From a virus (lineage: Duplodnaviria > Caudoviricetes), in the IMG/VR virus record IMGVR_UViG_3300028591_000071: a DNA stretch of 64,000 nucleotides. One strand, given 5' to 3'. The notes beneath the pieces were generated by a model that was not told the origin of the DNA, searched no databases, and saw nothing but the letters and a program-made list of their open reading frames with translations. This document shows, piece by piece, positions 1,346-52,544 of the stretch; within the stretch, counting starts at the first letter, position 1, and each line of letters begins with the position of its first letter. The translations under genes and the position numbers were made by a program.

Positions 1346-2506
1346 TTATAACTCCTCTGGGTGGATATAATCGTCTGTTATTATTCCCTTGTCTTTTTTC
1401 ATCTTGTCCATCCTGTCAACGAACTTGTCGTATTCAGAATCATCCTTTGCCTTATTGCAAATAAACGCCATGATTCTCCTTCCCTTCTTAGTTCCTGCAA
1501 GAACCTCTTTCATAAGGAAGTTGAATTTATCGGTCTCCAATGAAGACAATCTTTTAAATAAATAGGGTATATAGTCGAAACTTATGTCATTTAATGATTT
1601 TCTGACCATATTCCACATATGTCTTCCCAATCTCATGTCCCATGGCTCGGCCTTAAGGAAATCAGACTTTCCGAGAACGGATATAGCCCTGTTTCTTTCC
1701 TTTGGAAGCCCGTGTGAAATGAATAAATCCATGAAGCCCCTTATCGTCTCGCAAAGCAAGAACGGGAATATGACCCCCTGCGACTCTATCCTGCATTTTG
1801 TTTCCTCATTTCCGAGGCGGAGTTCAAATGTTCCCATCTGCAGGTTGTTATCGTCGGTCATTCCCAAATCTTCTTTCGTAAAGAGAAGATAATTGTTAAG
1901 GGCTGTTATTTCCGTGTATAGTTTTCTGAGTTCAGGATTTATCTCGTCAATTTGATGAAGGACGGATTCGTCGATTGAATATGATAAATCAAGGCCGATT
2001 CCCATACATACCGCATCCAAGAATCTTCTCTTATAAACCTCGCCCTTTATTGCCATCGCGTCTCCGAGGTCGTCGAATTCCATGTCTTCATCTCCGTCGG
2101 CGGGGTCTAATATGACTGAATCCCTGCTTGTGTCCACCTTGTCGGTAAGTGTTATGGAAAGGTCGACCGCATCTTCAGGAACCGCAAACAGGTCAATGAT
2201 ATAATTGAAGCATATCTTTTCGAGTTCGCTCCTATATGGCCTTTCAATTTCTTCACATTTGTGAATAAGACCAGCCAAAGCGGATTCAAGGGAAGTCTCA
2301 TCAACTCCGTCGATTGAACCTATTTCTTTTAAGGCATCCTTTGCAGAATCGAATTCGGTATTTACTACTTTCAATATATAAGGTATGTCATAGATATCCG
2401 GAATCGCCGGATTATTACCCAATGACGTGCGATGCTGTAAAACCGCCTGTCTTATATCATCAGGTATTGTATCTAATAAAATTGATTCTGTAATCAAACG
2501 TTTCAT
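1346..2506 (-). CDS. Hypothetical phage protein, probably virion-associated
   Basis: Long ORF; likely start MKRLITES at 2506, just after ACTATTTAT (2513-2521, minus strand). Confidence 0.6.
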   Translation of the reverse strand: MKRLITESILLDTIPDDIRQAVLQHRTSLGNNPAIPDIYDIPYILKVVNTEFDSAKDALKEIGSIDGVDETSLESALAGLIHKCEEIERPYRSELEKICFNYIIDLFAVPEDAVDLSITLTDKVDTSRDSVILDPADGDEDMEFDDLGDAMAIKGEVYKRRFLDAVCMGIGLDLSYSIDESVLHQIDEINPELRKLYTEITALNNYLLFTKEDLGMTDDNNLQMGTFELRLGNEETKCRIESQGVIFPFLLCETIRGFMDLFISHGLPKERNRAISVLGKSDFLKAEPWDMRLGRHMWNMVRKSLNDISFDYIPYLFKRLSSLETDKFNFLMKEVLAGTKKGRRIMAFICNKAKDDSEYDKFVDRMDKMKKDKGIITDDYIHPEEL

Positions 2507-2564
2507 ACCTATATAAATAGTTAATATATAACAAAAATGGCCCACATTGCTGTGAGCCATAACC

Positions 2565-3008
2565 TTATTTAAATGATTCCCGAAGTTGTTTCTTTGTCAT
2601 AACAGTTCCTTCTACTCTCATTTTCTTTAATCTCGCTTTTTCTATGTCTTTCTTTGAATAAGACTTTGTTTCGGATATTCCATCACCTGATATTTCAACA
2701 TCACCGCCAGTTCCTGTTGCTGCCGGGTTCAATTGATTCTGCATCGCCCTTTCAATTGTGTCACCCTTTCCGACTTCAACGTGCTGTGTCAATTTGGAAT
2801 CGTCCGACCCGTTTTGTGAATTCGGGTTTGATATGTGTATAACAGGGTCTCCGAGTTTGCTTGCCTGATTGATGTCTGCCCTGTTCTGTGTAACGGTATT
2901 TACCATTCCTGCTATGGTATTTGCCGTTGACTGGAGCCCGACATTCACATTGTTCTCCTCATTTAAACAACGGTCTAACTGCTTTGTATTAATTACAATC
3001 CTTTTCAT
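2565..3008 (-). CDS. Hypothetical head-associated protein
   Basis: N-terminus MKRIVINTKQLDRCLNEE resembles the shared leader; lies in the head operon. Confidence 0.55.
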   Translation of the reverse strand: MKRIVINTKQLDRCLNEENNVNVGLQSTANTIAGMVNTVTQNRADINQASKLGDPVIHISNPNSQNGSDDSKLTQHVEVGKGDTIERAMQNQLNPAATGTGGDVEISGDGISETKSYSKKDIEKARLKKMRVEGTVMTKKQLRESFK

Positions 3009-3009
3009 A

Positions 3010-3558
3010 TTATTTGAACTTTGGTGAATTGAATGGAGATTTCTTATTTAGTTTTCCGCCTTTCTTTTTCTCCACCGCATTATTCTTTTCATCTTCGGGT
3101 TGAGTTGTCAATAAGTTTTCGTTAATTGCCCTTAACTGACCTTTTCTGAAAATGACAGTTTCCATCATTGGTGCTGCATTCGGGTCTCCGCCTTCAGGAC
3201 CATCCATAGGTGGCATTTCCCCGCCGTCTTCAGGCCCATTTGATTCGTCTCTTGAAATCATACTTTCAATGTAACCCCTTGCCGCCTTCTTGTCTTCATC
3301 AGAAAGTTGGTTAAAGAGAGACATCGTGCTGTCATCACCTTCTCCGCCCTCAGGCTCGTTCATAGGCGGCTCGCCTTCCATTCCAGGGCCTCCTCCCATG
3401 TTTGGGTCAAGTTCTCCGTTTCCGTCAGGCGGTACATCTCCGCCCATTCCGTCCATAGGCGCTCCCGCAGGGTCTCCTTCAGGACCATTTGGGCCCATAT
3501 CTCCCGCAGGAACATCAGAAGCACCGTCCATAGGTGCCGGAGCCGGTGCCCCGCCCAT
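3010..3558 (-). CDS. Pro/Gly/acidic protein, probably the -1 frameshift extension of 3624-5411
   Basis: Frame stays open upstream of the ATG exactly to the A9 run at 3630-3638. Confidence 0.65.
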   Translation of the reverse strand: MGGAPAPAPMDGASDVPAGDMGPNGPEGDPAGAPMDGMGGDVPPDGNGELDPNMGGGPGMEGEPPMNEPEGGEGDDSTMSLFNQLSDEDKKAARGYIESMISRDESNGPEDGGEMPPMDGPEGGDPNAAPMMETVIFRKGQLRAINENLLTTQPEDEKNNAVEKKKGGKLNKKSPFNSPKFK

Positions 3559-3623
3559 AGATGGTGCTTCGTTATTGCTACCGCCTAACTTGAGGACTTT
3601 TCTCTCGTCCTCAAAGTTTTCAG

Positions 3624-5411
3624 TTACTCTTTTTTTTTATTCTCGCCCTCGATAGGGATACCGGCCTTCAATTGGTACATGATGTCCTTGGTAACTGCAT
3701 CAACCAACTGATTGAACGGGTCACCGTCACCAATCTTTGAGCCGAATGGCTCTTCGCTGTGAACGCTCTCGTCGTTCCAGTCTTCACCCCACTGATTCTT
3801 GTCTTCACCCGTTGTAGGGAGTTCCATTGGCTTCTTCCTGTAGCCAGGGTGCTTTCCGAAAACATGGAGTTCATCTTCTGCGAGAATCTTGCTAACAACA
3901 GACTCTACGATGCTGTTCATAATCTTCTGCTTTGCTTCCATCATTGGAGTTGGCTCCATCATGCTGCCGTCACCGCACTCGTCAAGGTCGTCATCGTCTC
4001 CGAGGGTATCCTCGTCTCCGCCGAATTCACCTTCTCTTTCTCCCGAGAGGTCAGCACCGAATTCACCTTCGTCGTCTGCGCCAAGGTCTTCGCCACCATC
4101 AGCGTCGAGTTCATCTTCGCCGCCGTCTGCGAATGACTCTGCGTCACCTTCGAAATCAGGTTCCTCACCTGCGATATCTCCGACAGGTTCCTCTTCGCCA
4201 CCGTCTAATTTTGCACGGAGTGCGTCAAGTTGTGCCTGAAGGTCTTCAATCTGTGCCATAAGGTCAGCATCGTCGTCGCTTTCAACGCCGTCCTCTGCAT
4301 CAAAGTCGTCTTCTGCGTCAAGTTCTGAATCAAAATCGGCAGCGCCGCCATCAACATCCTCAACACCCGCGTCAAGGTCTGTATCTGTTGCAGGGTCTTC
4401 GTCGTCTCCGCCGAAATCCTCTACATCAAAGTCATCTCCGCCTTCTGCAGGAACAGCCTCTGTGTCAACATCGGCCTCTGTATCAACAGGTGCTTCTACA
4501 TCTTCCTCTCCGTCGAGTTCTTCTTCCTCATTTACATTCTTGTTGAATGGGTCGTTGTTATGGTCGGTATCTGCCTCACCAACTCCTGCTGATGAAGGAA
4601 GTCCCTCTGAAGCCCAATCGTTCTCTTCCTCGTTGACCTTCTGCTGTCCATCCATTTCCCAACCGATTTCCTTAGGGTCGCGGCCCTTTCCGATGCCTTC
4701 GGTCCCCCAGTTCTCCGTGTTAGGGTGGAGAGGAGCGTCACCGATGTCTCCGGCCTCTTCCTTGAGCTGGTCTTTTGGATTGCCTTCACCCTGGTCGAAT
4801 GGAGCAACTTTCTTATCAACACCATTGGTCTTTGAACCCTTGTATTCAGGGTCTGCCTTTGTTTCCTTTCCGCCTTCGTCACCCTTCTTGCCTGTCTCGG
4901 CCTCAGGATTCTTGCCGTCGTACATTACAACGTCCCCGTCGCGTGAAGCGCCAATTTCGCTTGACTCTTCCATCAACATTGAAACATTGTACATAATCTG
5001 ACGTTGACGAGCGATTTCGTCGCGCATTGCGTCGGTTGCTTCCTGAAGTACCTGATGTGACCTGAAAGGATTAAGTGATTCGATATTCACTTTCTGGTCA
5101 TGCGCCTCATTGATGGAAGCCATTTTGAGTTCAAACTGCTTGAGGGCGTTTGCGTAACTCTTATATTCATAGTCGCCCTTGTTGCAGAACCCGCCAAGAT
5201 ACTCATAAGCCTCAGCGATAGTCTCCTTGCCCTTAGGAGCAGACTTAATATAATACTTGCTATTCTCCTTGATGATACCGTAAGTAACGCCGTCTGCTGC
5301 TACTGCGCGATGCTCAAGGGTGTGGGTTTTTAGGTTATTGCTCTCATTTAATTCCTTACCATAGGTATAAAGGTCTTTCATTCTTGCGAGAGCTTCGTCA
5401 AAACTTGGCAT
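3624..5411 (-). CDS. Highly acidic prohead core/internal protein
   Basis: 595 aa, D/E-rich, many L/I-x-E sites, ends in KKKE on an A9 run; ATATTTAT motif at 5455-5462. Confidence 0.7.
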   Translation of the reverse strand: MPSFDEALARMKDLYTYGKELNESNNLKTHTLEHRAVAADGVTYGIIKENSKYYIKSAPKGKETIAEAYEYLGGFCNKGDYEYKSYANALKQFELKMASINEAHDQKVNIESLNPFRSHQVLQEATDAMRDEIARQRQIMYNVSMLMEESSEIGASRDGDVVMYDGKNPEAETGKKGDEGGKETKADPEYKGSKTNGVDKKVAPFDQGEGNPKDQLKEEAGDIGDAPLHPNTENWGTEGIGKGRDPKEIGWEMDGQQKVNEEENDWASEGLPSSAGVGEADTDHNNDPFNKNVNEEEELDGEEDVEAPVDTEADVDTEAVPAEGGDDFDVEDFGGDDEDPATDTDLDAGVEDVDGGAADFDSELDAEDDFDAEDGVESDDDADLMAQIEDLQAQLDALRAKLDGGEEEPVGDIAGEEPDFEGDAESFADGGEDELDADGGEDLGADDEGEFGADLSGEREGEFGGDEDTLGDDDDLDECGDGSMMEPTPMMEAKQKIMNSIVESVVSKILAEDELHVFGKHPGYRKKPMELPTTGEDKNQWGEDWNDESVHSEEPFGSKIGDGDPFNQLVDAVTKDIMYQLKAGIPIEGENKKKE

Positions 5412-5478: not shown

Positions 5479-8400
5479 CTACGATAAACTATTCAATTTA
5501 TCATATGTATCTGACATCAAAGTCGTAATTTTTTCTATATATCCTAATCTTCGGAGGCACTTAAAAATAAGGTTTCCGTTTGTAATTTCTATCTCTTTAT
5601 CGTTCAGACTGCTTTTCCTTTCCTTTTTTATCTCGTCGAAAAGTTTGTCAGCATCTTCAGACACTTTCCTTATTTTATAATCGCTATCCGCTCCCTTATA
5701 AATAGTAAGAAGTTTGTCAATTTTATCAATGTATTCTGCCACCTTATTTTTAATAAGTGACTTGTTTATCTTTGACTTAGATAACTTTTCCCTTTCAGGT
5801 TCCTTAATCCATTTGTCCTTGTCGAGAGAATAGACACCGGTTGACGCATGCTTCTCTTTCGTGTCCTGTACATATAGTTCAACTGGGAAGCCGAATATCT
5901 TAAGGTCTTTATGCTCGTCGTTCCAAAGTTTCTTCTGTGAATAGAAATAGTTATCAACGAAATCGGTTCTCTTATCAACCTTTGAATAATCCATAAGGAC
6001 ATGAAGGTCAATGTCCGAAAATTTCTTATTCCAATTGTAATTGGCGAGAGAGCCCGTCATTATGATATCGTCAGGCTTGACCCAATCAACCCCAAGAAAC
6101 TCGATGAAATCGTCTGCTATATCTAATAATTTCATTCTAATCCTCGAATCGAGTCGCCCGTCTTTCCAGAATTTGGGGTTGAGTTGCGTCTTTATGTTAA
6201 ATGATGATAGGTCAATATCGTCAGGGTCTGTTGCTTCAGAAAGATTTTCTATTCCGTCAGGGTTACGCCTCTGCATGAGTTGAATGAGCCATTTTGAGTA
6301 TTTACCCTCCTGAAGGATATCCTTTGAATCCTTCTTTGCATATTCAGTCCATTTCCTGAAATAGACATTCCCCTTGAGGTATGCTTCAGATTCAATCTCT
6401 TCAAGACGCTCGTTATCCTTCACATCATCTTCTGAACTGAAATTAAGGTCAACGCCGTCAAGGTTCTGTGAGTGGTGAATCATCTCGTGCGCGTATGTGC
6501 GTAATATATCTTTAGGGTGTCTGTCCTTACAGAATATTACAATCGTTTTTGATTCAGGTTCATAATACCCTGTCTTTATGAAAAGTCCGTCCTGTTCATC
6601 CCAATTAAGTCTAATCTTCGGATATGGATATACATTGAGGCCGTCGTTCTTCATGAATTCGGCAATGGACCTCATCATAGGCGTATAATCATCTGCGGAA
6701 TGCATTTCAATTGATTCATTTACCGCATGGAAATATTCATTGTTTCCGCCTTCTCCGCCAATCTTATATTCATCTGCTTCAGGTTCTGCGCCTTCTGCCA
6801 TTTCATGTTGAACAGAGCCAAACGGAACCTTCCTACCAAATTCATCATATTCCCAAGAGCCGTCTTTTCCCGGAATAAACTTGAACACATCTTCAAACTT
6901 AATTCCAAGCAGTTTTTCCAACTGGCCCTTTGTGAGATAGTCTCCGTCAAATTCGTTTGGCATGTTGTATCTTGAATATACGACGAAATTGTTTTTAAAA
7001 ACGATGACAACAAATCTGCTGAGGCCATAGTAGTCGTATGGGAATTTCCAAGAGCCGGGTTTGTTTGTCCAAGACAAGTCGCTGTTTATAAGACCCATTT
7101 CGCCCATGTCATCCTCTTCTCCTGCGATATCGCATAGTTCTCCGAATTGGTTTGCATATTCCTGATTTTCCATCGCCTCGTCGTGCTTGTTGATGAGTTC
7201 TTCGTTCTCAACGAGGTAAACAGTCCCGTCTCCAATCAATCCATACCAAAGGTCGTCTGCATATGAAATACACCATTCGCCATCGCAACGGGCATTCATT
7301 TCATCATAACTATCAATTCTTGTAACGGTGAACCCGTCTTTGAGCCTGACCATTTTTTCCGATGTGGAAAATTCAGTTCCTTCGAAATCGGGGACAAAAA
7401 ACTTCTCTTTTAGTTCCTCAAAGGTTTTTCCTCCGAGATTAGGGTCGTTTATTCCTTGTCTTTCATAATAATTGCTGTTAGCAATCTTATATAATATCTT
7501 ATTAAGTACGCTGTATTCATCCCTTGGCAGTCCCTCCTCAAAAAGAATCCTCATAACCCCAAGCATGAATCTTCCTCCGCAAACTCTTGCATAAGGAATA
7601 GCCTCATAGATTTCCATTACCTTATTTCTAATGTCTTGGAAGTCAGTGAGTCCGAATTTTTCCTTAATATATTTGTTTACCTTTCGGTCGTTTGAGTTTT
7701 CGTCAATCACTTCTTCTTCCATCATTCCACCACCGGTAACTGCATCCATGATTCCGGCATTTACCTTGTTATGAACTTGGTCTTGTGCGGTTGGAACTTT
7801 TTCTTCCAGGAGATGCATCTGCATGAGTTGCTGATTATTTCTTGGCTTAAATGTTTGCAGATAGTTTATGCCTGTCAATTCCTGTATCTGCTCTGCGTTC
7901 CACATGTTGTTATGATTTTCTCCGCCGAATTCGTGGTTCCATCTCGTAGTAACATTATCAGGAAGTCCGTCCGCCCCAACTATTAGGGCAATAAGTGAAA
8001 GCCCATATTCGTCAAGCGGGCAATTTTCGCCCTGTTCCCTAGGGACATTCTCGAATCCGTCACGCATCAAGATATACAACTTTCCTCCGTTACTGAGATA
8101 TTGCGAATATTCCCATAATCCATTCTGTCCGCACACACACCAATCAGTATATTGGTCAAGCATATTAAGTATATTCCTTCCATTCGCATCAGGAGTAACC
8201 ATTCCCTGATGATTAACGGTATCGTTAATTGGAACAACCTTATAATGATGGTTGCCTCCCCCATTGTATTGCGCTAATCGTTCTTTCGCTCCATTTACAT
8301 ACGCATCCATTTTCCCGGCAAATTTTTGCATAATCTCGCCGTAAGACATACCATTAAGGTCTTTATCCAATTCTTCTCCGTCAAGCATAAACTCAGGCAT

Positions 8401-8868
8401 CTTGTCAATCATCTTCATCAACTTTGAGAACTTGATGATTCCGCCACCATTCATGTTTTCACCGAAAGAATAAAATCCGAGGTCTTGGCAAAGAATCCTC
8501 GCTATTCCGACAATATATTTATCAGGGCCGTTTCCGTGTGATATTCCGACCTGCCCCTTAAGATTAAGGACAAGGAAGTCTATGAAACGGTTCATTCCGT
8601 GTTGGTTATTCTTAACCGAGACCCACGCACCTTGTTCCTGCCCTTCCGGGTTGCACATATCATGTAACCAATTGGGCACATCTGAAAGCGGGGTCATTAA
8701 ATATGGCTTACAATATGTTCTATTGCAATTATCGGCAATGATTTTCATCACCTTCTTCCTGTCAGTTCCCGTCTCCTCGTTCAACATCATGGACCATCTG
8801 CCCGTTTTACTGGTAGATTTTTCCAATTCGTTCCGCTGATTTTCCGTTATGTAAATGGTTTTCATCAA
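5479..8868 (-). CDS. Multidomain protein: two PcfJ-like (WC) domains, zincin HExxH domain, C-terminal pol-beta-type nucleotidyltransferase
   Basis: TDWCVCG and GEWCISY; YAHEMIHH; TGSLANYNW...SDIDLH (GS..DxD). Confidence 0.7.
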   Translation of the reverse strand: MMKTIYITENQRNELEKSTSKTGRWSMMLNEETGTDRKKVMKIIADNCNRTYCKPYLMTPLSDVPNWLHDMCNPEGQEQGAWVSVKNNQHGMNRFIDFLVLNLKGQVGISHGNGPDKYIVGIARILCQDLGFYSFGENMNGGGIIKFSKLMKMIDKMPEFMLDGEELDKDLNGMSYGEIMQKFAGKMDAYVNGAKERLAQYNGGGNHHYKVVPINDTVNHQGMVTPDANGRNILNMLDQYTDWCVCGQNGLWEYSQYLSNGGKLYILMRDGFENVPREQGENCPLDEYGLSLIALIVGADGLPDNVTTRWNHEFGGENHNNMWNAEQIQELTGINYLQTFKPRNNQQLMQMHLLEEKVPTAQDQVHNKVNAGIMDAVTGGGMMEEEVIDENSNDRKVNKYIKEKFGLTDFQDIRNKVMEIYEAIPYARVCGGRFMLGVMRILFEEGLPRDEYSVLNKILYKIANSNYYERQGINDPNLGGKTFEELKEKFFVPDFEGTEFSTSEKMVRLKDGFTVTRIDSYDEMNARCDGEWCISYADDLWYGLIGDGTVYLVENEELINKHDEAMENQEYANQFGELCDIAGEEDDMGEMGLINSDLSWTNKPGSWKFPYDYYGLSRFVVIVFKNNFVVYSRYNMPNEFDGDYLTKGQLEKLLGIKFEDVFKFIPGKDGSWEYDEFGRKVPFGSVQHEMAEGAEPEADEYKIGGEGGNNEYFHAVNESIEMHSADDYTPMMRSIAEFMKNDGLNVYPYPKIRLNWDEQDGLFIKTGYYEPESKTIVIFCKDRHPKDILRTYAHEMIHHSQNLDGVDLNFSSEDDVKDNERLEEIESEAYLKGNVYFRKWTEYAKKDSKDILQEGKYSKWLIQLMQRRNPDGIENLSEATDPDDIDLSSFNIKTQLNPKFWKDGRLDSRIRMKLLDIADDFIEFLGVDWVKPDDIIMTGSLANYNWNKKFSDIDLHVLMDYSKVDKRTDFVDNYFYSQKKLWNDEHKDLKIFGFPVELYVQDTKEKHASTGVYSLDKDKWIKEPEREKLSKSKINKSLIKNKVAEYIDKIDKLLTIYKGADSDYKIRKVSEDADKLFDEIKKERKSSLNDKEIEITNGNLIFKCLRRLGYIEKITTLMSDTYDKLNSLS

Positions 8869-10822: not shown

Positions 10823-11545
10823 CTAGAAAGTTTTGAGCATGTGTCTCCTTAATATGTTCTGTGCTGTTCCCGAGTTCTTTTTTATGTCTCTCACCAATGC
10901 AATGTCCCTCGATGATGCCGCCGTCATCGCCGCATCACGTTCTTCATCACCCTTAAAGCCGCCCTTTGTTTTAGTAATCTTAGGATTTATATTCCTCGGG
11001 GCATCAAGCATGTGATACACAGTAACCCTTTCGGGCTCGATGCAGAGAATGTCCATCAAATAATTCTGTGCCATTATATCTGCCCCCTGATAATCACCGA
11101 CAATGAATTTTGCATTTGGATTTTCGTGGAGTGCAAAGTTTATAAGTGGTTCGTAATTGAATTCGAATTCGTTTGCTGTTATATCCCTGTGGCCTGAAAT
11201 AAAATAGGTATTTTCAACATCCAACGTGTCTTCTTCCGATTTATGCAGTTCTTCATAAATCTTGTCAAGGTCCGCGTTACCTACCTTCTCATATTCATAC
11301 TTTCCCTTTATCACCTTGTTCAGGGTCTTTCCCTGTGACGCATCAGTTCCGCCACCGACGAAGAGGACATAATCTTCAAATTTTACACCCGTATATTTGT
11401 ATGTGGTTCCGTTGTTGAATGTTATGAACAGGTCGCCTTTGTTTTCGTTGTCGTATTCAACCATCTCGGAGTATTTTATCATTGACGAATCATACCACAC
11501 TTTTTGAGTTTTCGTTTTTTCTTCGTATATTTTTTTGAGTATCAT
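10823..11545 (-). CDS. KTSC domain fused to a SLOG/YspA-like domain
   Basis: N-terminal DSSMI..LFITFNNGTTYKY..SQGKTLNKVIK (KTSC); C-terminal FISGHRD..VGDYQGAD..RDAAM (SLOG-like). Confidence 0.65.
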   Translation of the reverse strand: MILKKIYEEKTKTQKVWYDSSMIKYSEMVEYDNENKGDLFITFNNGTTYKYTGVKFEDYVLFVGGGTDASQGKTLNKVIKGKYEYEKVGNADLDKIYEELHKSEEDTLDVENTYFISGHRDITANEFEFNYEPLINFALHENPNAKFIVGDYQGADIMAQNYLMDILCIEPERVTVYHMLDAPRNINPKITKTKGGFKGDEERDAAMTAASSRDIALVRDIKKNSGTAQNILRRHMLKTF

Positions 11546-11665: not shown

Positions 11666-14218
11666 ATGGCAGAAAACGAAAATGCAAAACCTGATGTACA
11701 GGTTCCAACACCGCAGATGTCGGATGAATTGATTAATCTTTTGGATTTCATAAAGAAGGATTTATCAAAAGAATTACCAACCCTCACGATTGACTTGAAT
11801 TATTTCCTCCTTGGAGTGTTGTCACACAAGGATAATGATTTGTATGTCCGTCTTGAGAGTTGCATCATGTCATCAACGCTGTCGGCGATGTACAACACAT
11901 GGTATCAGGTGGTTTCGACAAAACAGATTTCAGCGGTTAAGCCGAACAGGGTTCCTTCATTTGACCAAAAGATGACCGAAATCCTTATTGCCGCCGAAAA
12001 GGAGGCGATTGATATGGAGAGTGAATTTATTACTTCCGAACATGTTTTTCTCGCCATCCTCGCCGACCTCGATGATTCCAATAAAATAAGGAAGGTATTC
12101 AATAAAGCGGGCATCACATACGGTTATATGCGAGGAAAGATGTCAGAGGGGCGTCCAATGGAAGTCAAGGAAGTTGGAACTATTCAACTTCCAAACGGAG
12201 ACAATGCACAGGTAAGGATGATTCGGGTTAAAGACCCTGAAGACATCAAGCGTGCGATTAAGAAAATGACCGGCCACGATATCATGGAGGACATGATGGG
12301 TAATTCGGAGATGGTGCCCGGCATGTCAAGGAAGAAAAAAGGGAAAAGCCAATATATTGAGGAGTATTGCACAAACCTCAATAAACTTGCATCCGAGGGA
12401 AAGATTGAAAAACTCGTTGGAAGAGAGCGCGAGGTAAATGAAATCATCCGCATTCTCGGAAGAAAGAAAAAGAACAACGCAATCCTCGTCGGAGGAGAAG
12501 GTGTTGGAAAAACCGCGATTGGAGAATCTATCGCGTGGAACATCGTCCATGGAGATGTGCCCGAGTTCCTTGTTGACAGGAAACTCGTATCTCTTGACAT
12601 GACCGCTCTTATGGCGGGAACGACCCTTAGGGGCATGTTCGAAGAGCGAGTAAAGGGCATTCTCGACGATATTCGTGCAGATAATTCATACATCCTGTTT
12701 ATGGATAATATCGGAGCAATCCTCGCCGATAAGGGAAAGAACGATTTTGAGATTTCTGCGATGCTCTCCCGCGCTTTGGAAAATGGCGAGATTCAGGTTA
12801 TCGGAACATCTGATTTTGCCTCCTACAGGAAGACTTTTGACAAAGACCCGAGCCTTGCTCGCCGCTTTCAAAAAATTATAGTTGAAGCGCCGTCAAAGGA
12901 AGATTCCGTAAAGATACTTGAAGGTATTAAGCCTGCATACGAAAAGCATCACAATGTAAAATATGATGATGCCGCAATCAAAGCGTGCGTTGAACTTGCT
13001 GACAGATACATTTCCGAAAGAAACCTTCCGGACTCGGCCATCGACCTTATCGATGAGGCTGGCGCCCACGAGAGTTTGATTAACGAGCCAGAAAAGTTAA
13101 GAGAACTCCGTATAAAGATGCTTGAAGAAAAAGAAGAGGAATCCGCGCCGCTCATCGAAGAGTATAACGAACTCAAGAAAGAGTTTGACGAGGATAGAAA
13201 GGAGAATCCAATTATCGTTACGAAAGAGAATATCCTTGACATCGTTTCGATGAAAACTGGTATTCCGGTCAACAATCTTACATCTGATGACAAGAAGAAG
13301 TTGTCAAATATCAATGACAGAATCAAAGAGGGTGTAATAGGACAGGACGAGGCTATCGATACCATTTGCAAAGCCCTCAAGAGAAACCGTATCGGATTGC
13401 ACAAGAGCGGCTGTATGTACAGTTGTATAGAAATCGGAAAGACAGGTGTTGGGAAGACGCTTATTGCCAAGAAACTCGCCAAAGAATTGTTTGGCGACGA
13501 GAAGGCCCTTGTCCGTTTTGACATGTCTGAATATTCCGATAAGGTTTCGGTTAACAAACTCATTGGCTCGAATCCTGGATATGTCGGTTATGAAGAGGGC
13601 GGACAACTCACGGAAGCAATTAAGAACAAAAAGCATTGCGTGCTTCTCCTTGATGAAATTGAAAAGGCCGACCCCGAGGTGTATAACATCTTCCTTCAGG
13701 TTCTCGATGAAGGATTCCTTACTGACAACTCAGGCATGCATGTTGATTTCAGCAATGTGATTGTCATTTTCACTTCCAATGTTGGCGCAAAGGCCGCAAG
13801 CGAATTTGGTCGTGGAATTGGATTTAACGAGAATGAGTCAGAGAACACGAAGAGGATATTGCTTAAGCAATTGAAGGGCAAATTCCCGCCCGAATTCCTG
13901 AACAGAATAGATGACATAATCTATTTCAACTCACTCACAGATGACAATCTTAAGGACATCATCAAGATTGAACTCGACAAGTTGGAGAATAATGTAAATT
14001 CAATCGGCCACGACATTGAATATGATGACTGCGTTGTAGAATATATTCTTGAAATTGTCAAAAGCGAAAAAGAATTTGGTGCAAGACCGATTATGCGTGC
14101 GATACAGGATGAAATTGAAGATAAGATAACAGAAGCCATTCTCGACAACGACTACGAGGATGGGCACAGATTCAAAATTTCTTGTTGTTCCGACGAAAGC
14201 AAAGTCGTTGTTGCTTAG
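11666..14218 (+). CDS. clpC: ClpC/ClpA-like Hsp100 AAA+ ATPase
   Basis: Clp N-repeat (ITSEHVFLAIL), GEGVGKT, RNLPDSAIDLIDEAG, GKTGVGKT, GYVGYEEGG, LLDEIEKA, IGF loop, FGARP. Confidence 0.92.
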   Translation: MAENENAKPDVQVPTPQMSDELINLLDFIKKDLSKELPTLTIDLNYFLLGVLSHKDNDLYVRLESCIMSSTLSAMYNTWYQVVSTKQISAVKPNRVPSFDQKMTEILIAAEKEAIDMESEFITSEHVFLAILADLDDSNKIRKVFNKAGITYGYMRGKMSEGRPMEVKEVGTIQLPNGDNAQVRMIRVKDPEDIKRAIKKMTGHDIMEDMMGNSEMVPGMSRKKKGKSQYIEEYCTNLNKLASEGKIEKLVGREREVNEIIRILGRKKKNNAILVGGEGVGKTAIGESIAWNIVHGDVPEFLVDRKLVSLDMTALMAGTTLRGMFEERVKGILDDIRADNSYILFMDNIGAILADKGKNDFEISAMLSRALENGEIQVIGTSDFASYRKTFDKDPSLARRFQKIIVEAPSKEDSVKILEGIKPAYEKHHNVKYDDAAIKACVELADRYISERNLPDSAIDLIDEAGAHESLINEPEKLRELRIKMLEEKEEESAPLIEEYNELKKEFDEDRKENPIIVTKENILDIVSMKTGIPVNNLTSDDKKKLSNINDRIKEGVIGQDEAIDTICKALKRNRIGLHKSGCMYSCIEIGKTGVGKTLIAKKLAKELFGDEKALVRFDMSEYSDKVSVNKLIGSNPGYVGYEEGGQLTEAIKNKKHCVLLLDEIEKADPEVYNIFLQVLDEGFLTDNSGMHVDFSNVIVIFTSNVGAKAASEFGRGIGFNENESENTKRILLKQLKGKFPPEFLNRIDDIIYFNSLTDDNLKDIIKIELDKLENNVNSIGHDIEYDDCVVEYILEIVKSEKEFGARPIMRAIQDEIEDKITEAILDNDYEDGHRFKISCCSDESKVVVA

Positions 14219-38039: not shown

Positions 38040-38057
38040 AAATGAGAAAAATATAAT

Positions 38058-38492: not shown

Positions 38493-38496
38493 AAAT

Positions 38497-38676
38497 ATGA
38501 TTACTGAAGATTACGTTTCCTTTGAAACAGCCAAACTCCTTAAGGAAAAGGGGTTTGATAAAAAATGCTTTACTGTTTACAATAATAATCATGAATATCG
38601 TTCTTCAGATTATTTTGACTCTTATGAAGAAGCCTGTGAGGCAGGCATTAAATATTATCTTGAAAATTTGATTTAA
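38497..38676 (+). CDS. Family B paralog, internally deleted
   Basis: Both termini present; PTLQMAM core absent. Confidence 0.6.
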   Translation: MITEDYVSFETAKLLKEKGFDKKCFTVYNNNHEYRSSDYFDSYEEACEAGIKYYLENLI

Positions 38677-38678
38677 CA

Positions 38679-39125: not shown

Positions 39126-39144
39126 AAAATTGATTTAATAAACT

Positions 39145-39744: not shown

Positions 39745-39893
39745 ATATGACTAAAGAACAAGCAATAGAACAACTTGAACAATCCATAGATGGGTGGTAC
39801 GAGTTTTGGGATGATGCTTCTCATCATATATCTGAAAAGGATATTGAAGCGATACAGATTTTGATTGAAATCGCAAAAAATAGTAAATAATAT

Positions 39894-41081
39894 ATGAAAC
39901 AAGAAGAAGCAATAGAAAGAATTAAGGCTCGTTTTGATAAATGGGCTTTGGATAATGAAGACATGAAAGCGATTCAAACCCTTATTCCCGAACTCCGCGA
40001 GAACGAGGACGAGAGGATAAGAAAGGCGTTGATTGAGGGTGTGAGACAAATTCGTTGTAAGAATGGTATCACGCAAGAACAGATGGTTGCTTACCTCGAA
40101 AAGCAGAAAGAAACAGGGATTCAATGGTTTAAAAGTGATAATGTGAAAAATCCCGACAAGCCGTATATTGACAAGGCAGGAATGTTTTACACGACTGACG
40201 GCAGAATGTGTTATGCTTCCGAGATTGAAAAGCAGAAAGAACAGAAGCCAATCAAGTGGACAGATTTGACTTGGAAAGATATAGTTGAGCTTGAAGGTAT
40301 CATCAATAATGTCCACTACGATTTCAGTGATGGAATAGGCCAAGAATCATTCGGAAAAGAAGTTCTTGAGAGATTTCGTAGTACAAAGGGCATAGAATAT
40401 CTTGATGAAGCAGAACAAAAGTATTGGCGAGAAGAGGGACAGAAAGAGCAGAAACTTGCTTGCGAAGACAATTTTAAGTGGACAAGTCAAGATGAAAGAT
40501 GTAGAGGCAAACTAATAGATATACTTGAACTCGCTGATATAAAATATCCAGCAACAAAAGATAGTAGAGACGAATTGTGGGAATGGCTAAAAGAATTACC
40601 AATGAAATTCCCCAACAAAAATGCTTTTGTATATGGTACTTTAGATAGTGACGATAAGTGGTCACAAACCGAAGAAATCTTAGGCGTTGATGGGAATCCT
40701 ACTTGCTATAAGCAGAAGCCCGCAGATGATAAATCCTTTGAAGAATGGATTGATGATTGGTGGAAATACAATAAGGTAAACAATCCTGATTCATATAACA
40801 AAGGCGATGAAATTCAATTCGACGAACAGGGTTTCAAGAGATTTTGCCGGGGCATTAGAAATATGTATCAACAGAAGCTCGTACATACCGCAAAAGAGAT
40901 GTGGAAAGAAATGAGGCTTGAGACATATGCTCAGGCATCTGGCAATCGCCACGAGCCAAATTATTCTGATGATTCTACGAAAATGTTTTCACTTTGTGAT
41001 ATAGACGAAATCTTCGAGAAAATCGATAATTCTATTGTTGGTTACAGCCCACAGATGATGTATCCAAAGAAGTATGTATAA
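39894..41081 (+). CDS. Family C modular protein
   Basis: Modules delimited by EDERIRK, YLEKQKE, KEQKP. Confidence 0.7.
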   Translation: MKQEEAIERIKARFDKWALDNEDMKAIQTLIPELRENEDERIRKALIEGVRQIRCKNGITQEQMVAYLEKQKETGIQWFKSDNVKNPDKPYIDKAGMFYTTDGRMCYASEIEKQKEQKPIKWTDLTWKDIVELEGIINNVHYDFSDGIGQESFGKEVLERFRSTKGIEYLDEAEQKYWREEGQKEQKLACEDNFKWTSQDERCRGKLIDILELADIKYPATKDSRDELWEWLKELPMKFPNKNAFVYGTLDSDDKWSQTEEILGVDGNPTCYKQKPADDKSFEEWIDDWWKYNKVNNPDSYNKGDEIQFDEQGFKRFCRGIRNMYQQKLVHTAKEMWKEMRLETYAQASGNRHEPNYSDDSTKMFSLCDIDEIFEKIDNSIVGYSPQMMYPKKYV

Positions 41082-41093
41082 AAACGATTAGAT

Positions 41094-41405
41094 ATGAGTA
41101 AAGCATTTTTCATTTATAGGGACGGCGAAAAATTCGGGAATCCAACGGGATACACGACAGAGAAAGGCGCGAAGAAATCACTTGTAGGTTGTGATGATTG
41201 GTACAGGCTCCTGATGCCTTATCAACTTCTCAATGCGAAGGAAGACATTAGCGAAGAAATGAAGGCAACAGGTTTCTTCTATTGGAGCAAATACGGCAAC
41301 TGTTGGTTGTTTGACAGGAAGGTTTGGAGCAGGAAAATATGGGCTCCGTATGTCAAGGAACACTATCAGATTATCGAAAAAAATTACGAAATAAATACCG
41401 ATTAG
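41094..41405 (+). CDS. Hypothetical protein
   Basis: ORF bounded by ATTAGATATG on both sides. Confidence 0.55.
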   Translation: MSKAFFIYRDGEKFGNPTGYTTEKGAKKSLVGCDDWYRLLMPYQLLNAKEDISEEMKATGFFYWSKYGNCWLFDRKVWSRKIWAPYVKEHYQIIEKNYEINTD

Positions 41406-41407
41406 AT

Positions 41408-41806
41408 ATGACACAAGAAGAAAAACAGTTACTCTTTAAGGACCTTTGTTCGAGGTTGCCTTATGGGGTTAAATGCAAAATACGTTATACGTTCAATAAC
41501 GAAACAACTTTTGGTGAGGATGTTGAAGCGGAAGAAGATGACGTTCTTGTCAAAATAGACCCACAAATCCAATCTGCATTTTTTGATTGGTATGGTGATT
41601 TTATAAGTATTGAAAATTTCAAGCCTTATCTCCGCCCAATGTCAAGTATGACGAAAGCAGAAAAGGAGGAATATGAGAAAATGACTGCTTGGGGCTCCTT
41701 TGATTGGGAAATGGTTGATTTCTATAATGAGCATCACTTTGATTATCGTGGATTGATACCTATGGGCCTCGCTCTTGAAGCACCTGAGGGAATGTATAAA
41801 CAGTAA
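41408..41806 (+). CDS. Family A paralog
   Basis: Conserved termini. Confidence 0.75.
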   Translation: MTQEEKQLLFKDLCSRLPYGVKCKIRYTFNNETTFGEDVEAEEDDVLVKIDPQIQSAFFDWYGDFISIENFKPYLRPMSSMTKAEKEEYEKMTAWGSFDWEMVDFYNEHHFDYRGLIPMGLALEAPEGMYKQ

Positions 41807-41920
41807 ATGATATGGACAAGGCGGAATATAATGTAACAATGTATCATTGCTACGTGAAATGCAAGCCACAGGAGGAAAAATGCAAGGACTGCGAGTTATT
41901 AAAGATTTATAGGGAAATAT

Positions 41921-42283
41921 ATGACACAGGAAGAAAAACAACTATTGCTGATTGATTTAAGTGCGAGGCTACCTTATGGAGTAAAAGTTCATATCACAGA
42001 CGAGTGGTTTTATGATAAGATTGAACCATATGATAGAAGACTTGATTGTGATGTTATAAAACATATAAGAGAAAATCGATACACAGTCAAGCCATATCTC
42101 CGTCCAATGTCAAGTATGACAATGGAAGAGAAAAGAGAGTATATCCCTGTTGGAAGAGGTATGTCCCCCGATAATCCAAGTGTTTTAGCTGATTGGCTCA
42201 ACGAACATTACTTTGACTATCGTGGTTTAATCCCAATGGGGCTTGCTCTTGAAGCACCTGCAGGAATGTATAAAGCAGTATAA
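41921..42283 (+). CDS. Family A paralog
   Basis: Conserved termini. Confidence 0.75.
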   Translation: MTQEEKQLLLIDLSARLPYGVKVHITDEWFYDKIEPYDRRLDCDVIKHIRENRYTVKPYLRPMSSMTMEEKREYIPVGRGMSPDNPSVLADWLNEHYFDYRGLIPMGLALEAPAGMYKAV

Positions 42284-42296
42284 AACACAGAAAAAA

Positions 42297-42515
42297 ATGG
42301 ATTACGAAAATTTTATAAATGAATACGATAAACAGCATGCTTGCTGCCCAATATGTCACAGTGAGAATTTTTCTTCAACAATGGTGGCATATCCCTACTA
42401 TGAAGAACATCCTGAAAATTACAAAGACAGGAATCGTGTGAGATGCCATGATTGTGGATGGGTAGGAATACGGCACGAACTTATTCCAATTATAAAGATG
42501 AGTAAAAAGAAATAA
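42297..42515 (+). CDS. Zn-ribbon protein
   Basis: CPIC...CHDC. Confidence 0.6.
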   Translation: MDYENFINEYDKQHACCPICHSENFSSTMVAYPYYEEHPENYKDRNRVRCHDCGWVGIRHELIPIIKMSKKK

Positions 42516-42528
42516 TAGAGATAGAAAT

Positions 42529-43182
42529 ATGAAACAAGAAGATAAACAACTTTTATTAATAGATTTATCTGCAAGGTTGCCTTATAAGGTGAAGGGGGTA
42601 TATGCCAGAACCGATATTAAAAACCTGTCCATATGTGAAATCACCGCGCATCTATATGGTGAGATGGAAGAATCATTTAATGGAAAAGAAAAATGCGAGT
42701 TTATCCCCTATCTCCGCCCAATGTCAAGTATGACGGAGGAAGAAGAAAATGAATATAGAGCAATAAATTGTTATGAAGGCTTATTTCCTCGTAATGAAGA
42801 AGCCCTTGATTATGTTCTTGAACATCATTTTGACTATCGCGGCTTGATTGAAAAAGGTTTTGCTCTTGAAGCACCTCCGGGGATGTATAATAAAGAAGAG
42901 TCAGAAAAAGAGAGTGAGATTCCCATCCCAAAAACCGTTGATGAGGCAGTAAAAACTTTGGCTAAGATAGTTTCAAAAGAAGACAGGGATTACCTTCTCG
43001 AAAACGGTGCAATTTCAATGCATAACTCATTGGGTAGATGGATTAGGAATGAATGGGGACTATGGACCGGTTCTGAACTTAAAGATGAGATGATGAATAT
43101 GAATAAAGGCCTTAATCACCCTGATGATATGTCGAATTATATTATAGAAGAATTCATTAAATATTGGAATAGTAAAATATGA
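42529..43182 (+). CDS. Family A paralog with a fused C-terminal domain (DUF6794-like)
   Basis: After EAPPGMY: PKTVDEAV..HNSLGRWIRNEWGLW..HPDDMS. Confidence 0.65.
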   Translation: MKQEDKQLLLIDLSARLPYKVKGVYARTDIKNLSICEITAHLYGEMEESFNGKEKCEFIPYLRPMSSMTEEEENEYRAINCYEGLFPRNEEALDYVLEHHFDYRGLIEKGFALEAPPGMYNKEESEKESEIPIPKTVDEAVKTLAKIVSKEDRDYLLENGAISMHNSLGRWIRNEWGLWTGSELKDEMMNMNKGLNHPDDMSNYIIEEFIKYWNSKI

Positions 43183-43574
43183 TGACTGAGGACTACGTTA
43201 GTTTTGAAACGGCAAAACTCCTGAAAGAAAAGGGGTTTGATGGAGATGGCAGTCATTTCTATGAAAATAAAAAGATTGTTAGTTTTGTTGATTATTGGAA
43301 TAGAATAACACCTTATGAAAGGTATTGTGCTATAGAATGCCCAACCCTCCAAATGGCTATGAAGTGGTTGAGGGAAGTGCATAATCTCCATTGTGCTGTT
43401 GATTATGATTTTGCCCTCGGATGGTATTGCCAAATTACTAGCCTCAAAGAAACCGTTGAATACGATTACGAAGAATTAGTGAAACATTATCATCCGGAGA
43501 AGAACAGCGGTTTTTCATCCCCAGAAGAAGCCTGTGAATCGGCTATTAAGTATTGTCTTGAAAATTTGATTTAG
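43179..43574 (+). CDS. Family B paralog
   Basis: Conserved termini and PTLQMAMKWLRE. Confidence 0.75.
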   Translation: MMTEDYVSFETAKLLKEKGFDGDGSHFYENKKIVSFVDYWNRITPYERYCAIECPTLQMAMKWLREVHNLHCAVDYDFALGWYCQITSLKETVEYDYEELVKHYHPEKNSGFSSPEEACESAIKYCLENLI

Positions 43575-43884
43575 ATGGACAACACAGTAACAACAGAGAA
43601 ACTTAATCTGTATCTCTTCTCAGGAAGTCCTTCGAGGCTTTGCATTTGTTTTTGCCAATAAATCTTTGTATTTTTATATAAATAAGAATTATAACAAGAG
43701 AAAAAATGAAAACAACATTAACCTTGGGTGACATTGGAACGATAACAATCCCAAAGAAAAAAGAAGCTCAACAGTGGCTTTATTCGCTAATTGAAAGTTT
43801 TGTGTGGAGAAAGGATTATCCATATAGTAAAACTCAAATTCTTAAATATATTGCTGAATTATAAACACAATACAGGTAAGAATT

Positions 43885-50533: not shown

Positions 50534-51214
50534 ATGAACAGAAAAGACCTACAGGAAAAGTATAATATCATCGGTAAAAATGATGACATCTACCTTTATA
50601 GAAAGCATGGGGAATATGAAAGGGGGTTCGGATATTGTGGAAACATTTCCCTGAAAAATGGGAAGGCTGTCTTCAACGGAGTTCAGTATCCGACGATAGA
50701 AGCCCTCGACGCCGCTCTCCGCGAATGGGAAAAGACTCTTCCTTGGCCGGTGGACACATATAATCCGATGCTGAGGAAAGGGGCGGTGGTCGAAGACCGT
50801 GTCGTTTGGTACCTCACCGAGAAAATGGGATTCAAGACCGTACATGCCGATTGGTCCGTTCGATATTCAAAGGAGATTGGCATTAACTCATCCATTTCCT
50901 TCAGTGTGGATAGAAATGGGATTGATAGTGATAAAATAACTATCATCTGTCCCTACGGTCCATATACCTTCAGGGAGGAATTCACGGATGCCGAATCGGC
51001 GGTCGCCATGATTTCTTCGTTGGTCAGGCAGCAGGTCTTGCAGATGTCATCGGGGATGGTGGAAGCACTTTCCGTATGTCCCGATGTCGATGTTCCTGAA
51101 ATGGAAGCATATGTAAAATCGAACAAAAACATTTTCGGCATAGAAAAAATCGATTACAAGTCGATGATGATTTCCCTGCTCGAAAACGAACTTAAGAAAC
51201 TGAAAGGAGAATAA
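50534..51214 (+). CDS. Hypothetical protein
   Basis: 226-aa ORF after an AT-rich divergent promoter region. Confidence 0.6.
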   Translation: MNRKDLQEKYNIIGKNDDIYLYRKHGEYERGFGYCGNISLKNGKAVFNGVQYPTIEALDAALREWEKTLPWPVDTYNPMLRKGAVVEDRVVWYLTEKMGFKTVHADWSVRYSKEIGINSSISFSVDRNGIDSDKITIICPYGPYTFREEFTDAESAVAMISSLVRQQVLQMSSGMVEALSVCPDVDVPEMEAYVKSNKNIFGIEKIDYKSMMISLLENELKKLKGE

Positions 51215-51222
51215 AGGAGGAA

Positions 51223-51615
51223 TTGATTATGACAAAAGAAGAACTGAAGACCTTTTTGGGACTGAATGATAAATTCATCGAAGACTGTAACCGTGTTTGT
51301 AACATTTTAAATGGCAGCAAAAAACGCCATGGAGAATGTGAAAATATCTCTTATGCAGACAGATTCAACATCGAAGACAATAGCGTTTGGTGGGAAGGTG
51401 ACGAATATTGGTCATATGGCGGACATGAGAAGCATTGTGGCTATTTCGATATCGAGTTCCTTACAATGTCCGATGATGAACTTCTTGAAATCGTAAAGAA
51501 GGAAAACGAGGAATACGACAGGAAAAAGGAGCAGAAAAAGAAGGAGAGGGAAGAAAGGGAGAAGGCCAAAAGGCTTGCCGAATATGAACGACTCAAAAAA
51601 GAATTTGGACAATGA
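51223..51615 (+). CDS. Hypothetical protein with a charged C-terminal helix
   Basis: RBS AAGGAGG; ends EYERLKKEFG. Confidence 0.6.
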   Translation: MIMTKEELKTFLGLNDKFIEDCNRVCNILNGSKKRHGECENISYADRFNIEDNSVWWEGDEYWSYGGHEKHCGYFDIEFLTMSDDELLEIVKKENEEYDRKKEQKKKEREEREKAKRLAEYERLKKEFGQ

Positions 51616-51766
51616 TTGGATAGTGTGAACAACTACCGGGGTTTAATGTTTACAAATAAAAAACGGAATTATCCCTTTGTGTGTTGTGAATAAGTCAGAA
51701 AAGAACCGCAGTTGGCTTCTATCTTCTGCGGTTTTTCGTTATCTTTGTAGAAACTAAAATACGGTT

Positions 51767-51976
51767 ATGGGGAATAGCATTAAATGCCCAATTTGTAATC
51801 AAATGGTGGCGGTGAGGTCAAATGCAGTAACACCTATTGGGTTTGACCATGAGATTCAGATGGTTGTATCAGATTGTGGCCACTTGTGCGGATGTATAGA
51901 TAATGCATATTACATTAACACAGTTCGCGCCTTAAACAATCTAACCAGGCAGTTGTCAGCTGAGAAGAATCGGTAA
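51767..51976 (+). CDS. IS passenger: small Zn-finger protein
   Basis: CPIC..CGHLC; TATCTTTG box at 51740-51747. Confidence 0.5.
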   Translation: MGNSIKCPICNQMVAVRSNAVTPIGFDHEIQMVVSDCGHLCGCIDNAYYINTVRALNNLTRQLSAEKNR

Positions 51977-52544
51977 TACGATTTTTCTTTAAGAAATCGT
52001 TTTGTATTTCTATATCTTGGTCTGACATATTGTTAGGCCATACTTCTCCTTTGTTATCAACAACGGTTTTCTTATAAACCTTTACTCCGTTGTCAGCAGA
52101 TGTTTCAAGTACCCTTCTAATACATTCTTTAACAATCATTCTTAAATCAGATTCTGAAAGTGTGACTGTTTTTCTTTCACAAAGCGGAATTGGGGAATTG
52201 TGGTAATCTCCTTCATAGAGAGCATCTTTTACATTGAAAACATATCCACCTTTTCGTGTTTTCTTGATAACGCCAGCGAAATACCAATGACGGTATTTTG
52301 TTACCAACCACTTGTGCGCTTCCCACGGATTATAAGATGAACCCCTGACATCAGTTTCGTATGTGACTTGTTGCCCGTGAAAGGACGCCACAGTCACAGC
52401 CTCTGACGATAATTGTGTTCGGAGAATTGCTCTTGCTCTTGGGGAACGAATCCTCTTTGCCCTATTCTTGTAGAAATGGGCATATTTCTGCGCTATTAGT
52501 GTATTGATAGCACCATTGGGAGGAAAGTTAATCGTTACGAGCAT
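51915..52544 (-). CDS. IS passenger carrying the phage targeting-like motif
   Basis: VTLSESDLRMIVKECIRRVLE. Confidence 0.6.
   Translation of the reverse strand: MLVTINFPPNGAINTLIAQKYAHFYKNRAKRIRSPRARAILRTQLSSEAVTVASFHGQQVTYETDVRGSSYNPWEAHKWLVTKYRHWYFAGVIKKTRKGGYVFNVKDALYEGDYHNSPIPLCERKTVTLSESDLRMIVKECIRRVLETSADNGVKVYKKTVVDNKGEVWPNNMSDQDIEIQNDFLKKNRITDSSQLTTAWLDCLRRELC

Follow-up and report, generated by a model that had tools for sequence, protein, structure and literature searches.

A short peptide tag on unrelated proteins of a jumbo phage, a candidate capsid-loading and protease-trimmed address label

Introduction

Why should proteins with unrelated domains, encoded by a single phage, carry the same short peptide at either end or between their modules? 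The question is raised by a 64,000-nucleotide stretch of viral DNA from the Caudoviricetes (IMG/VR record IMGVR_UViG_3300028591_000071), referred to here at its full length as the window, in which a peptide of about 26 residues, hereafter the tag, recurs on several open reading frames (ORFs). A first-pass annotation made from the letters alone had proposed a portable packaging signal that loads enzymes into the prohead, where a protease encoded at 622-1344 would free them for ejection. Our own reading, to which we give an even chance of being right, is that the tag is an address label for the prohead core of T4-related jumbo phages, by which proteins would be loaded into the capsid and from which they would be trimmed by the head protease.

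Positions 1-52.6 kb of the window (GC ~40%) belong to a jumbo phage. Relatives of its protease, 58-78% identical, lie on IMG/VR contigs of 130-393 kb; the best cultured matches are T4-like Vibrio phages at 33-37% identity, and no cultured phage is close. A complete relative, G002 (392,823 bp, GC 29.6%; loci L022-L041), was used for comparison.

Results

The tag and its distribution

Eight copies of the tag were located in the window, on six ORFs.

21371-21460, minus strand: tag copy, internal in ORF 20882-21604
29331-29420, minus strand: tag copy, N-terminal in ORF 27654-29411
27657-27731, minus strand: tag copy, C-terminal in ORF 27654-29411
16885-16974, minus strand: tag copy, N-terminal in ORF 16615-16986
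52086-52175, minus strand: tag copy, internal in ORF 51915-52544
30880-30954, minus strand: tag copy, C-terminal in ORF 30877-33216
29504-29593, plus strand: tag copy, N-terminal in ORF 29513-30370 (GTG start)
32287-32376, minus strand: tag copy, internal in ORF 30877-33216

The consensus is (M)KKNT(I/V)(K/R)L(N/T)ESQL(R/K)K(I/M)(V/I)xESVK(K/R)(V/I)LKE. A hidden Markov model (HMM) built from the seed alignment scores the eight copies at 26-33 bits, with the next six-frame match at 7.7 bits, a test that is circular. An independent profile was built from 275 tag copies of outside proteins only, and the six top matches of this profile in the window (31.7 to 9.2 bits) are six of the eight copies; it misses the two that diverge most, at the N-terminus of 29513-30370 and inside 30877-33216. 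The first-pass annotation had assigned the motif to these same six ORFs and had proposed that a profile be built from it; all eight copies are found there, and the profile now built ranks them as described. It had further called the motif a portable, position-independent peptide on unrelated proteins, and both statements hold: N-terminal, internal and C-terminal copies are all present in the window, and the six ORFs encode unrelated proteins.

A search of 1.84 billion representative proteins with the tag profile returned 2004 clusters at E <= 1e-3 and 34 at E <= 1e-10. The related phages that carry the tag have genomes of 200-390 kb, with copies spread genome-wide, 5-14 per genome in five relatives and 15 and 14 in two further complete genomes. 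Most of the top-150 proteins bear two copies, at a median spacing of 124 residues, and the 295 copies classed by placement in these proteins, the window and G002 comprise 124 N-terminal, 144 internal and 27 C-terminal ones. The carriers are mostly small proteins of no known function. A Pfam search of the top tagged proteins gave almost no matches, and no Pfam family matches the tag itself. Neither the 585-aa protein of ORF 27654-29411 nor a canonical two-tag protein found a match in a tblastn search of cultured phages; a search for related loci with the 585-aa protein found none, and a literature search with the motif strings found no paper. A degenerate DNA pattern of the 9-residue core matched 32 viral-contig stretches, 28 of which contain a tag copy scoring 15 bits or more. 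In seven loci on IMG/VR contigs (L047, L051, L062, L065, L066, L070 and L071), a family of 350-400 aa without homologue in the window or G002 ends in the second half of the tag only (...VKE(T/S)VKKVLKE(Y/H)(I/T)NKKK).

Three conserved glutamates

Columns 8, 17 and 25 of the tag are Glu in 94%, 93% and 85% of the 275 copies, and Asp occupies these columns in a single case, at column 25, among 293 classed copies. Two residues before each Glu stands a hydrophobic residue (L/I in 86%, V/I in 99% and L in 84%), and Ser directly follows the first two. L-K-E fills columns 23-25 in 85% of copies, with L-N-E and V-x-E upstream. Taken as a sequence pattern, this is a run of three consecutive putative T4-style cut sites. 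N-terminal and internal copies retain the third Glu in 236/268 cases, C-terminal copies in only 12/25 (Fisher P 7e-6), a relaxation that fits a signal needing a cut only on the side of the cargo; alternatively, the position of the helix end could explain it.

Protease, scaffold and head cluster

A protease and a scaffold gene, whose products would cut and receive such a signal, lie at the left end of the window.

622-1344, minus strand: prohead protease of the T4 gp21 family, Peptidase_S77 (Pfam PF03420, E 1.2e-26)
2-508, minus strand: acidic scaffold, N-terminal 169 aa, gp22 analogue by position

The protease, correctly recognized as a gp21-type enzyme by the first-pass annotation, also matches phrog_207 (head maturation protease) at 5.9e-43. 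An S77 protease is encoded on all six large motif-bearing contigs (completeness estimate <90%, or complete), and motif-bearing contigs without one are rated 32% and 53% complete. The product of 2-508 is assigned as scaffold on the basis of its position and its very acidic composition: it is 47% identical to G002_73918-75483, and the gene order in G002 is protease, acidic scaffold and gp23-like capsid protein (PDB T4 gp23, E 2.8e-28). In a three-way alignment, AMLSE/ATD of the G002 capsid protein lies opposite the maturation sites LTE/AEI of T4 gp23 and LRE/S of gp24 (the slash gives the position of the site), so L-x-E cleavage specificity has probably been retained in this phage group.

The scaffold also resembles the tag. 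In hhalign comparisons, scaffold residues 27-48, a conserved helix, pair with tag columns 7-28 so that the Glu sites coincide (probability 86%, P 5e-6, with two different tag alignments), and the tag-like helix of the window protein spans residues 28-50 (nt 359-427). In single-sequence scans with two tag profiles, the two scaffolds rank first and third among ~575 non-tag proteins. This similarity is suggestive of a link between the tag and the prohead core.

Five further genes lie upstream of the protease (1346-2506, 2565-3008, 3010-3558, 3624-5411 and 5479-8865), four of which concern us here.

1346-2506, minus strand: conserved head-cluster protein with leader MKRLITE, directly upstream of the protease
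2565-3008, minus strand: small head-cluster protein with leader MKRIVINTKQL, homologue of G002_70090-71073 (which starts MKKIIITRSQL)
3624-5411, minus strand: second acidic core-like protein, with a weakly tag-like helix at residues 497-513 (nt 3873-3923)
5479-8865, minus strand: 1128-aa head-cluster protein with leader MKTIYITENQ and a C-terminal nucleotidyltransferase (NTP_transf_2, E 6e-6)

The start of 1346-2506 was set at 2506 because of a promoter box at 2520; the protein is 51% identical to G002_71146-72339. In 9/9 of its orthologues, [LIV]-x-E stands immediately N-terminal to the conserved start ILLD.LP.D, and in L004 the leader is retained within an 898-aa fusion protein. A family search with 2565-3008 gave no match. 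Similarity between 5479-8865 and G002_65535-67787 is confined to the leader and the last 255 aa; the variable middle of the window protein contains an HExxH metallopeptidase-like segment, with a weak match to DUF6782 (1.5e-4). Leaders of the type MK.I.ITE.Q, found on three head-cluster proteins and on the InPase protein described below, resemble the first half of the tag. The first-pass annotation had counted such looser MKK-type leaders with the motif; they recur in orthologues and at one fusion joint, and they score poorly against the profile.

The protein 3624-5411 looks like a second scaffold-type core protein. Its helix 497-513 is weakly similar to the tag (hhalign P 0.013), and alignment A6 shows that both terminal domains are conserved and enclose a long, acidic, low-complexity stretch, an architecture that rules out the portal as an identity for this protein. 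As the portal was not located, we claim synteny with T4 for the protease, scaffold and capsid gene only.

Two further genes inside the head cluster are conserved in G002, and T4 has nothing comparable at that place: 11666-14218 (plus strand), a ClpB-type AAA+ protein (phrog_4871, E 8.5e-202), and 10823-11545 (minus strand), a KTSC-domain protein.

Promoter box and gene neighbourhood

The box (C/A)TATTTAT occurs 19 times in the window, in 13 cases 13-51 nt before a start codon and in sense orientation. The copies relevant here are the following.

551, 2520, 5462, 8878, 14262, 17003, 25036, 29430, 33244 and 52755: promoter boxes

Those at 551, 5462, 8878 and 14262 belong to the scaffold 2-508, to 3624-5411, to 5479-8865 and to the InPase gene, and those at 17003 and 33244 to 16615-16986 and 30877-33216; the box at 52755 is 211 nt upstream of 51915-52544. 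Five of the six tagged units in the window are headed by the box and the sixth by a one-base variant, GTATTTAT, which bears out the first-pass placement of tagged genes behind a late-type promoter. The ACTATTTAT box precedes the head-cluster genes and other late-looking genes (putative tail, fibre), and in G002 it heads 7/10 tag genes against 80/505 genes overall (P 1.6e-4). None of the ~45 small plus-strand ORFs at 33.4-51.6 kb, a block with one box that we presume to consist of early genes, was found to carry the tag. Within this block, 34400-43600 (plus strand) holds an expanded family of 8-9 paralogous small ORFs like G002_390754-391152 and G002_370852-371265. An IS605/TnpB-type transposase gene, 26440-27624 (plus strand; phrog_506, E 2e-137), starts 15 nt behind a late-type box and is 66% identical to its G002 copy; in G002 the box also stands before homing-endonuclease-like genes.

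In relatives, tagged genes tend to lie beside the protease. Tag ORFs occur within 1.7 kb of the protease gene and on the same strand in 6/9 relatives with enough flank (P 2e-4), either upstream of the protease or between it and the scaffold, and G008 has two further tag ORFs directly upstream of the protease.

This neighbourhood bears on a first alternative, in which the tag would dock onto a hub other than the capsid, either the ClpB-like AAA+ protein or a host factor, for folding, regulation or localisation. Strong sequence conservation over more than 2000 protein clusters implies one conserved partner; the head cluster does contain a ClpB-type ATPase and a KTSC protein, which that of T4 lacks; the tagged genes of the window are scattered; and one contig, discussed below, has a tag and no S77 protease. 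Docking onto a hub leaves unexplained, however, why the tag should resemble the scaffold helix in register, why tag genes should cluster beside the protease, and why the third Glu should be lost selectively from C-terminal copies. We consider this alternative unlikely.

Tagged proteins and their modules

The proteins that bear the tag, together with the leader-bearing InPase protein, are listed below.

14293-15885, plus strand: InPase protein with leader MKKIILSESQ (polyvalent-type InPase, PF18823, E 3.7e-51)
16615-16986, minus strand: 123-aa protein with N-terminal tag (35.6 bits with tag alignment A1, 13.0 bits with the outside profile)
20882-21604, minus strand: 240-aa protein with basic N-terminus, internal tag and HExxH domain (40.8 bits; 16.1 bits with the outside profile)
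27654-29411, minus strand: 585-aa protein, tagged N- and C-terminally (promoter box at 29430)
29513-30370, plus strand: 285-aa protein, tagged N-terminally when translated from the GTG start (seed HMM, 30.6 bits)
30877-33216, minus strand: 779-aa protein with SprT-like module (3e-8), divergent internal tag and C-terminal tag
51915-52544, minus strand: 209-aa protein with internal tag (38.4 bits; best outside-profile match in the window, 31.7 bits)

The enzyme labels of the first-pass annotation stand in part. InPase, the SprT-like modules (3e-8 in 30877-33216; 6.9e-14 in 15899-16615, whose start overlaps 16615-16986 by one base) and NTP_transf_2 are matched. The PcfJ-like and ArfA-like labels have no Pfam match at E <= 0.1, and the ADP-ribosyltransferase (ART) assignment is weak, 29513-30370 reaching 24 bits against ART-PolyVal, under the cut-off of 31.2. 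Among the signature domains of polyvalent proteins, InPase and SprT-like are thus matched and ART-PolyVal falls short of its threshold. The GTG start of 29513-30370 is backed by the GTATTTAT box 25 nt upstream and by the MKFTE.DI starts of other tagged proteins.

Fusion and splitting of modules are seen at tags and leaders when the window is compared with relatives. The InPase protein 14293-15885 is a fusion whose residues 1-141 resemble G002_59222-59674 and whose residues 144-320 resemble G002_51605-52255, two separate leader-bearing genes in G002. In 30877-33216, residues 5-276 resemble G002_248764-249831 and the internal tag begins at residue 282, at the module joint; after it come further domains and, at the C-terminus, a second tag that the outside profile scores at 24.7 bits. 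Several modules are joined in this protein and in 5479-8865, and most tagged proteins have a single one. Among copies that are not N-terminal, 68/161 have Met at the usual start position against an expectation of 28%, which fits repeated fusion of tagged genes. The HExxH domain is preceded by the tag in 20882-21604, a gene downstream of an amidase gene (21604-22440) and of the box at 25036, and is followed by it in G002_26726-27052.

The 585-aa protein offers a view of tags at both ends of one fold. A C-terminal tag variant scores in 10/11 orthologues (P0161-P0171; down to 35% identity) and an N-terminal tag in 6/11 (>=8 bits), the others showing an N-terminal variant by eye; E42-N43, the last two residues of the N-terminal tag, are invariant in the family, and the domain that follows begins ERGGSEILYHFTS. 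In an AlphaFold2 model of low overall confidence (pLDDT, the predicted local distance difference test, 63), the tags form terminal helices (residues 5-23 and 568-584) flanked by low-confidence linkers. The best PDB fold matches are DarT DNA ADP-ribosyltransferases, a weak match (E 0.06) that serves as a lead only.

These observations also bear on a second alternative, that the tag does no more than form a stable helix or mediate oligomerisation, has no addressing role and owes its spread to small phage genes being duplicated and shuffled. The conserved Glu and Lys would then form salt bridges and would not be protease sites. Such a helix would account for the recurrence of E at i with K/R at i+4 (columns 8/12, 17/21 and 21/25), for the presence of 5/8 window copies in the top 10% of hydrophobic moment, for the small size and lack of known function of most carriers, and for a bulk frequency of L-x-E that is not enriched. 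It does not readily account for a motif that accompanies enzyme domains of different kinds and can precede or follow one and the same domain, for the near-absence of Asp at the three Glu columns, or for terminal helices in the 585-aa protein that are set apart from its fold by low-confidence linkers and yet persist as variants in the orthologues, and it leaves the enrichment behind late promoters and near the protease unexplained. We consider this alternative quite improbable.

A third alternative overlaps our own reading, in that the tag would indeed load the prohead, with a cargo of additional core or inner-body blocks, degraded or retained, in place of effectors. Tag- and leader-bearing proteins make up most of the conserved head cluster (1346-2506, 2565-3008, 5479-8865; G002_72377-72994), where they occupy the slot of T4 gp67 and gp68, and two acidic scaffold-like proteins bear tag-like helices. 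On the other hand, for many of the carriers, which are enzymes (InPase, metallopeptidases, nucleotidyltransferase and possibly ART), the family is predicted to function inside the host cell (PMC5512222), and the enzyme carriers are hypervariable between relatives, as T4 internal proteins are. We rate a cargo of this kind no higher than the helix element.

A DNA repeat or an RNA signal as the origin of the tag is ruled out by codon usage: two copies that share 14/20 residues have only 4/13 identical codons, and such differences in synonymous codons imply selection on the peptide.

Right-hand part of the window

From 52.7 to 64 kb, GC rises to ~50% from the ~40% before it and G002 homologues are lacking. 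This segment (52700-64000), which lies outside the tag finding, encodes an IS1595 transposase, an ECF sigma factor, an AAA ATPase and MoxR/VWA proteins. Possible origins are a mobile insert, a genome end and an assembly join.

Discussion

An address label that loads the capsid and is trimmed by the protease, the reading to which we give an even chance, would work as follows. The tag, a short strand plus an amphipathic helix, would mimic a helix near the N-terminus of the acidic scaffold, and by this mimicry tagged proteins would join the growing scaffold while the shell is still open. The S77 protease would next cleave behind the Glu of as many as three (L/I/V)-x-E sites within the tag, destroying it along with the scaffold and leaving the cargo in the head. 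With cut sites of its own, such a tag could function at either terminus of a protein or at a joint between modules, and tagged modules would be free to fuse and split. A more specific form of this reading, less likely but possible, makes the tag a copied piece of the scaffold that acts as a self-destroying, position-independent loading signal. We infer binding to the core and cleavage of the tag, and delivery into the host is purely conjectural.

Several observations weigh against this reading. The phage is uncultured, and the tag profile has no detectable homology to the capsid-targeting sequence (CTS) of T4 or to T4 core proteins; searched with the profile, T4 gp21, gp22, gp23, gp24, gp67 and gp68 score at most 2.4 bits, and the tag differs from the CTS (MKTYQEFIAE) in both length and sequence. 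Strict Glu with Lys/Arg four residues off is also the pattern of a stable solitary helix. The likeness to the scaffold is weak at the level of single sequences (P 0.001-0.005 among 594 proteins), and amphipathic helices of like composition may align by chance. The first-pass annotation had described the domains of tagged proteins as separated by L/I-x-E junction sites, a claim that fails on bulk density: tagged proteins have 18.1 L/I-x-E per 1000 residues and other phage proteins 14.8 (P 0.12), and since the pattern is common everywhere, such junctions carry no weight unless conserved. The tagged genes of the window are dispersed among helicase, amidase, NUDIX and transposase genes, outside the head cluster. 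The late-type box also heads transposase and homing-endonuclease-like genes and is therefore no marker of virion proteins alone. Finally, one contig is an exception to the pairing of tag and protease: L049/G012 (IMGVR_UViG_3300021387_000535, 73 kb, rated 92% complete) encodes one canonical N-terminal tag protein, and neither an S77 protease nor a gp23-like capsid gene was found on it.

If the tag is indeed an address label for the prohead, a single profile search would list the capsid cargo of many uncultured giant phages, most of it without a known family. If it is, more specifically, a copied piece of the scaffold, the proteins that a whole uncultured clade of T4-related jumbo phages packages and probably injects (more than 2000 clusters, mostly of no known function) could be predicted from their sequences, and the tagged modules would behave as units of exchange, fusion and splitting. 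As the first phage proteins to meet the host, the cargo would include the best candidates for anti-defence and takeover functions. T4-style capsid targeting would be seen to operate with the signal at either terminus or between domains, and a longer, well-defined peptide would be at hand for loading foreign proteins into capsids.

Comparison with known systems

Short terminal peptides that suffice to load unrelated cargo into an HK97-fold shell are familiar from encapsulins and from the scaffold or protease targeting tails of HK97-like capsids, where the peptide may be at either end, binds the shell protein and stays uncut. In the phage studied here, the probable receptor is the scaffold core and the tag seems built for cutting.

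The closest parallel is provided by the internal proteins of T4 (IPI, IPII, IPIII and Alt), a diverse, defence-related set that has in common only the CTS by which its members are loaded into the scaffolding core (PMC3012670). The leaders of T4 internal proteins are removed by gp21, and Alt loses N- and C-terminal propeptides at ITE and LTE (PMC5694885). The T4 proteins IPII and IPIII start MKTYQEFIAEA and gp22 starts MLKEQLIAEA (L076:3417-4416, L042:9118-9927), so the CTS of T4 likewise resembles the N-terminus of the scaffold. Both systems thus combine a gp21-family protease, a scaffold and a gp23-like capsid gene with a short conserved leader on unrelated, hypervariable late proteins, and in both the leader ends in (L/I)-x-E, resembles the scaffold N-terminus and has counterparts at both protein ends (Alt in T4). 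The CTS of T4 has 10 residues and is N-terminal only, whereas the tag has ~26, is found at both termini and internally, in many proteins as two copies, and has three Glu sites, with 5-15 carriers per genome, unlike T4. Function in T4 is demonstrated, whereas loading and cutting are what we infer here from sequence.

A second comparison is with phiKZ, 201phi2-1 and SPN3US, likewise jumbo phages, in which many head proteins, among them ejection and inner-body proteins, are cut after Glu at short motifs; the phiKZ group has multi-site propeptides and paralogues with identical N-terminal propeptides (PMC5694885). The protease of that group belongs to S80, with motif A/S/G-x-E, in contrast to S77 here, and no common portable 26-residue tag has been described there.

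The domains carried by the tagged proteins recall the polyvalent proteins, which comprise InPase, MPTase/SprT-like and ART-PolyVal domains, with 2 to 15 domains per polypeptide, and are predicted to be packaged in the virion (Iyer et al. 2017, PMC5512222). InPase and SprT-like domains recur in the leader- and tag-bearing proteins, alongside a sub-threshold match to ART-PolyVal; domains are combined modularly in both groups, and packaging is predicted for both. In polyvalent proteins the domains share one polypeptide and are released by an internal autoprotease, whereas here they reside mostly on separate or few-domain proteins, each with the common tag, from which the head protease would release them.

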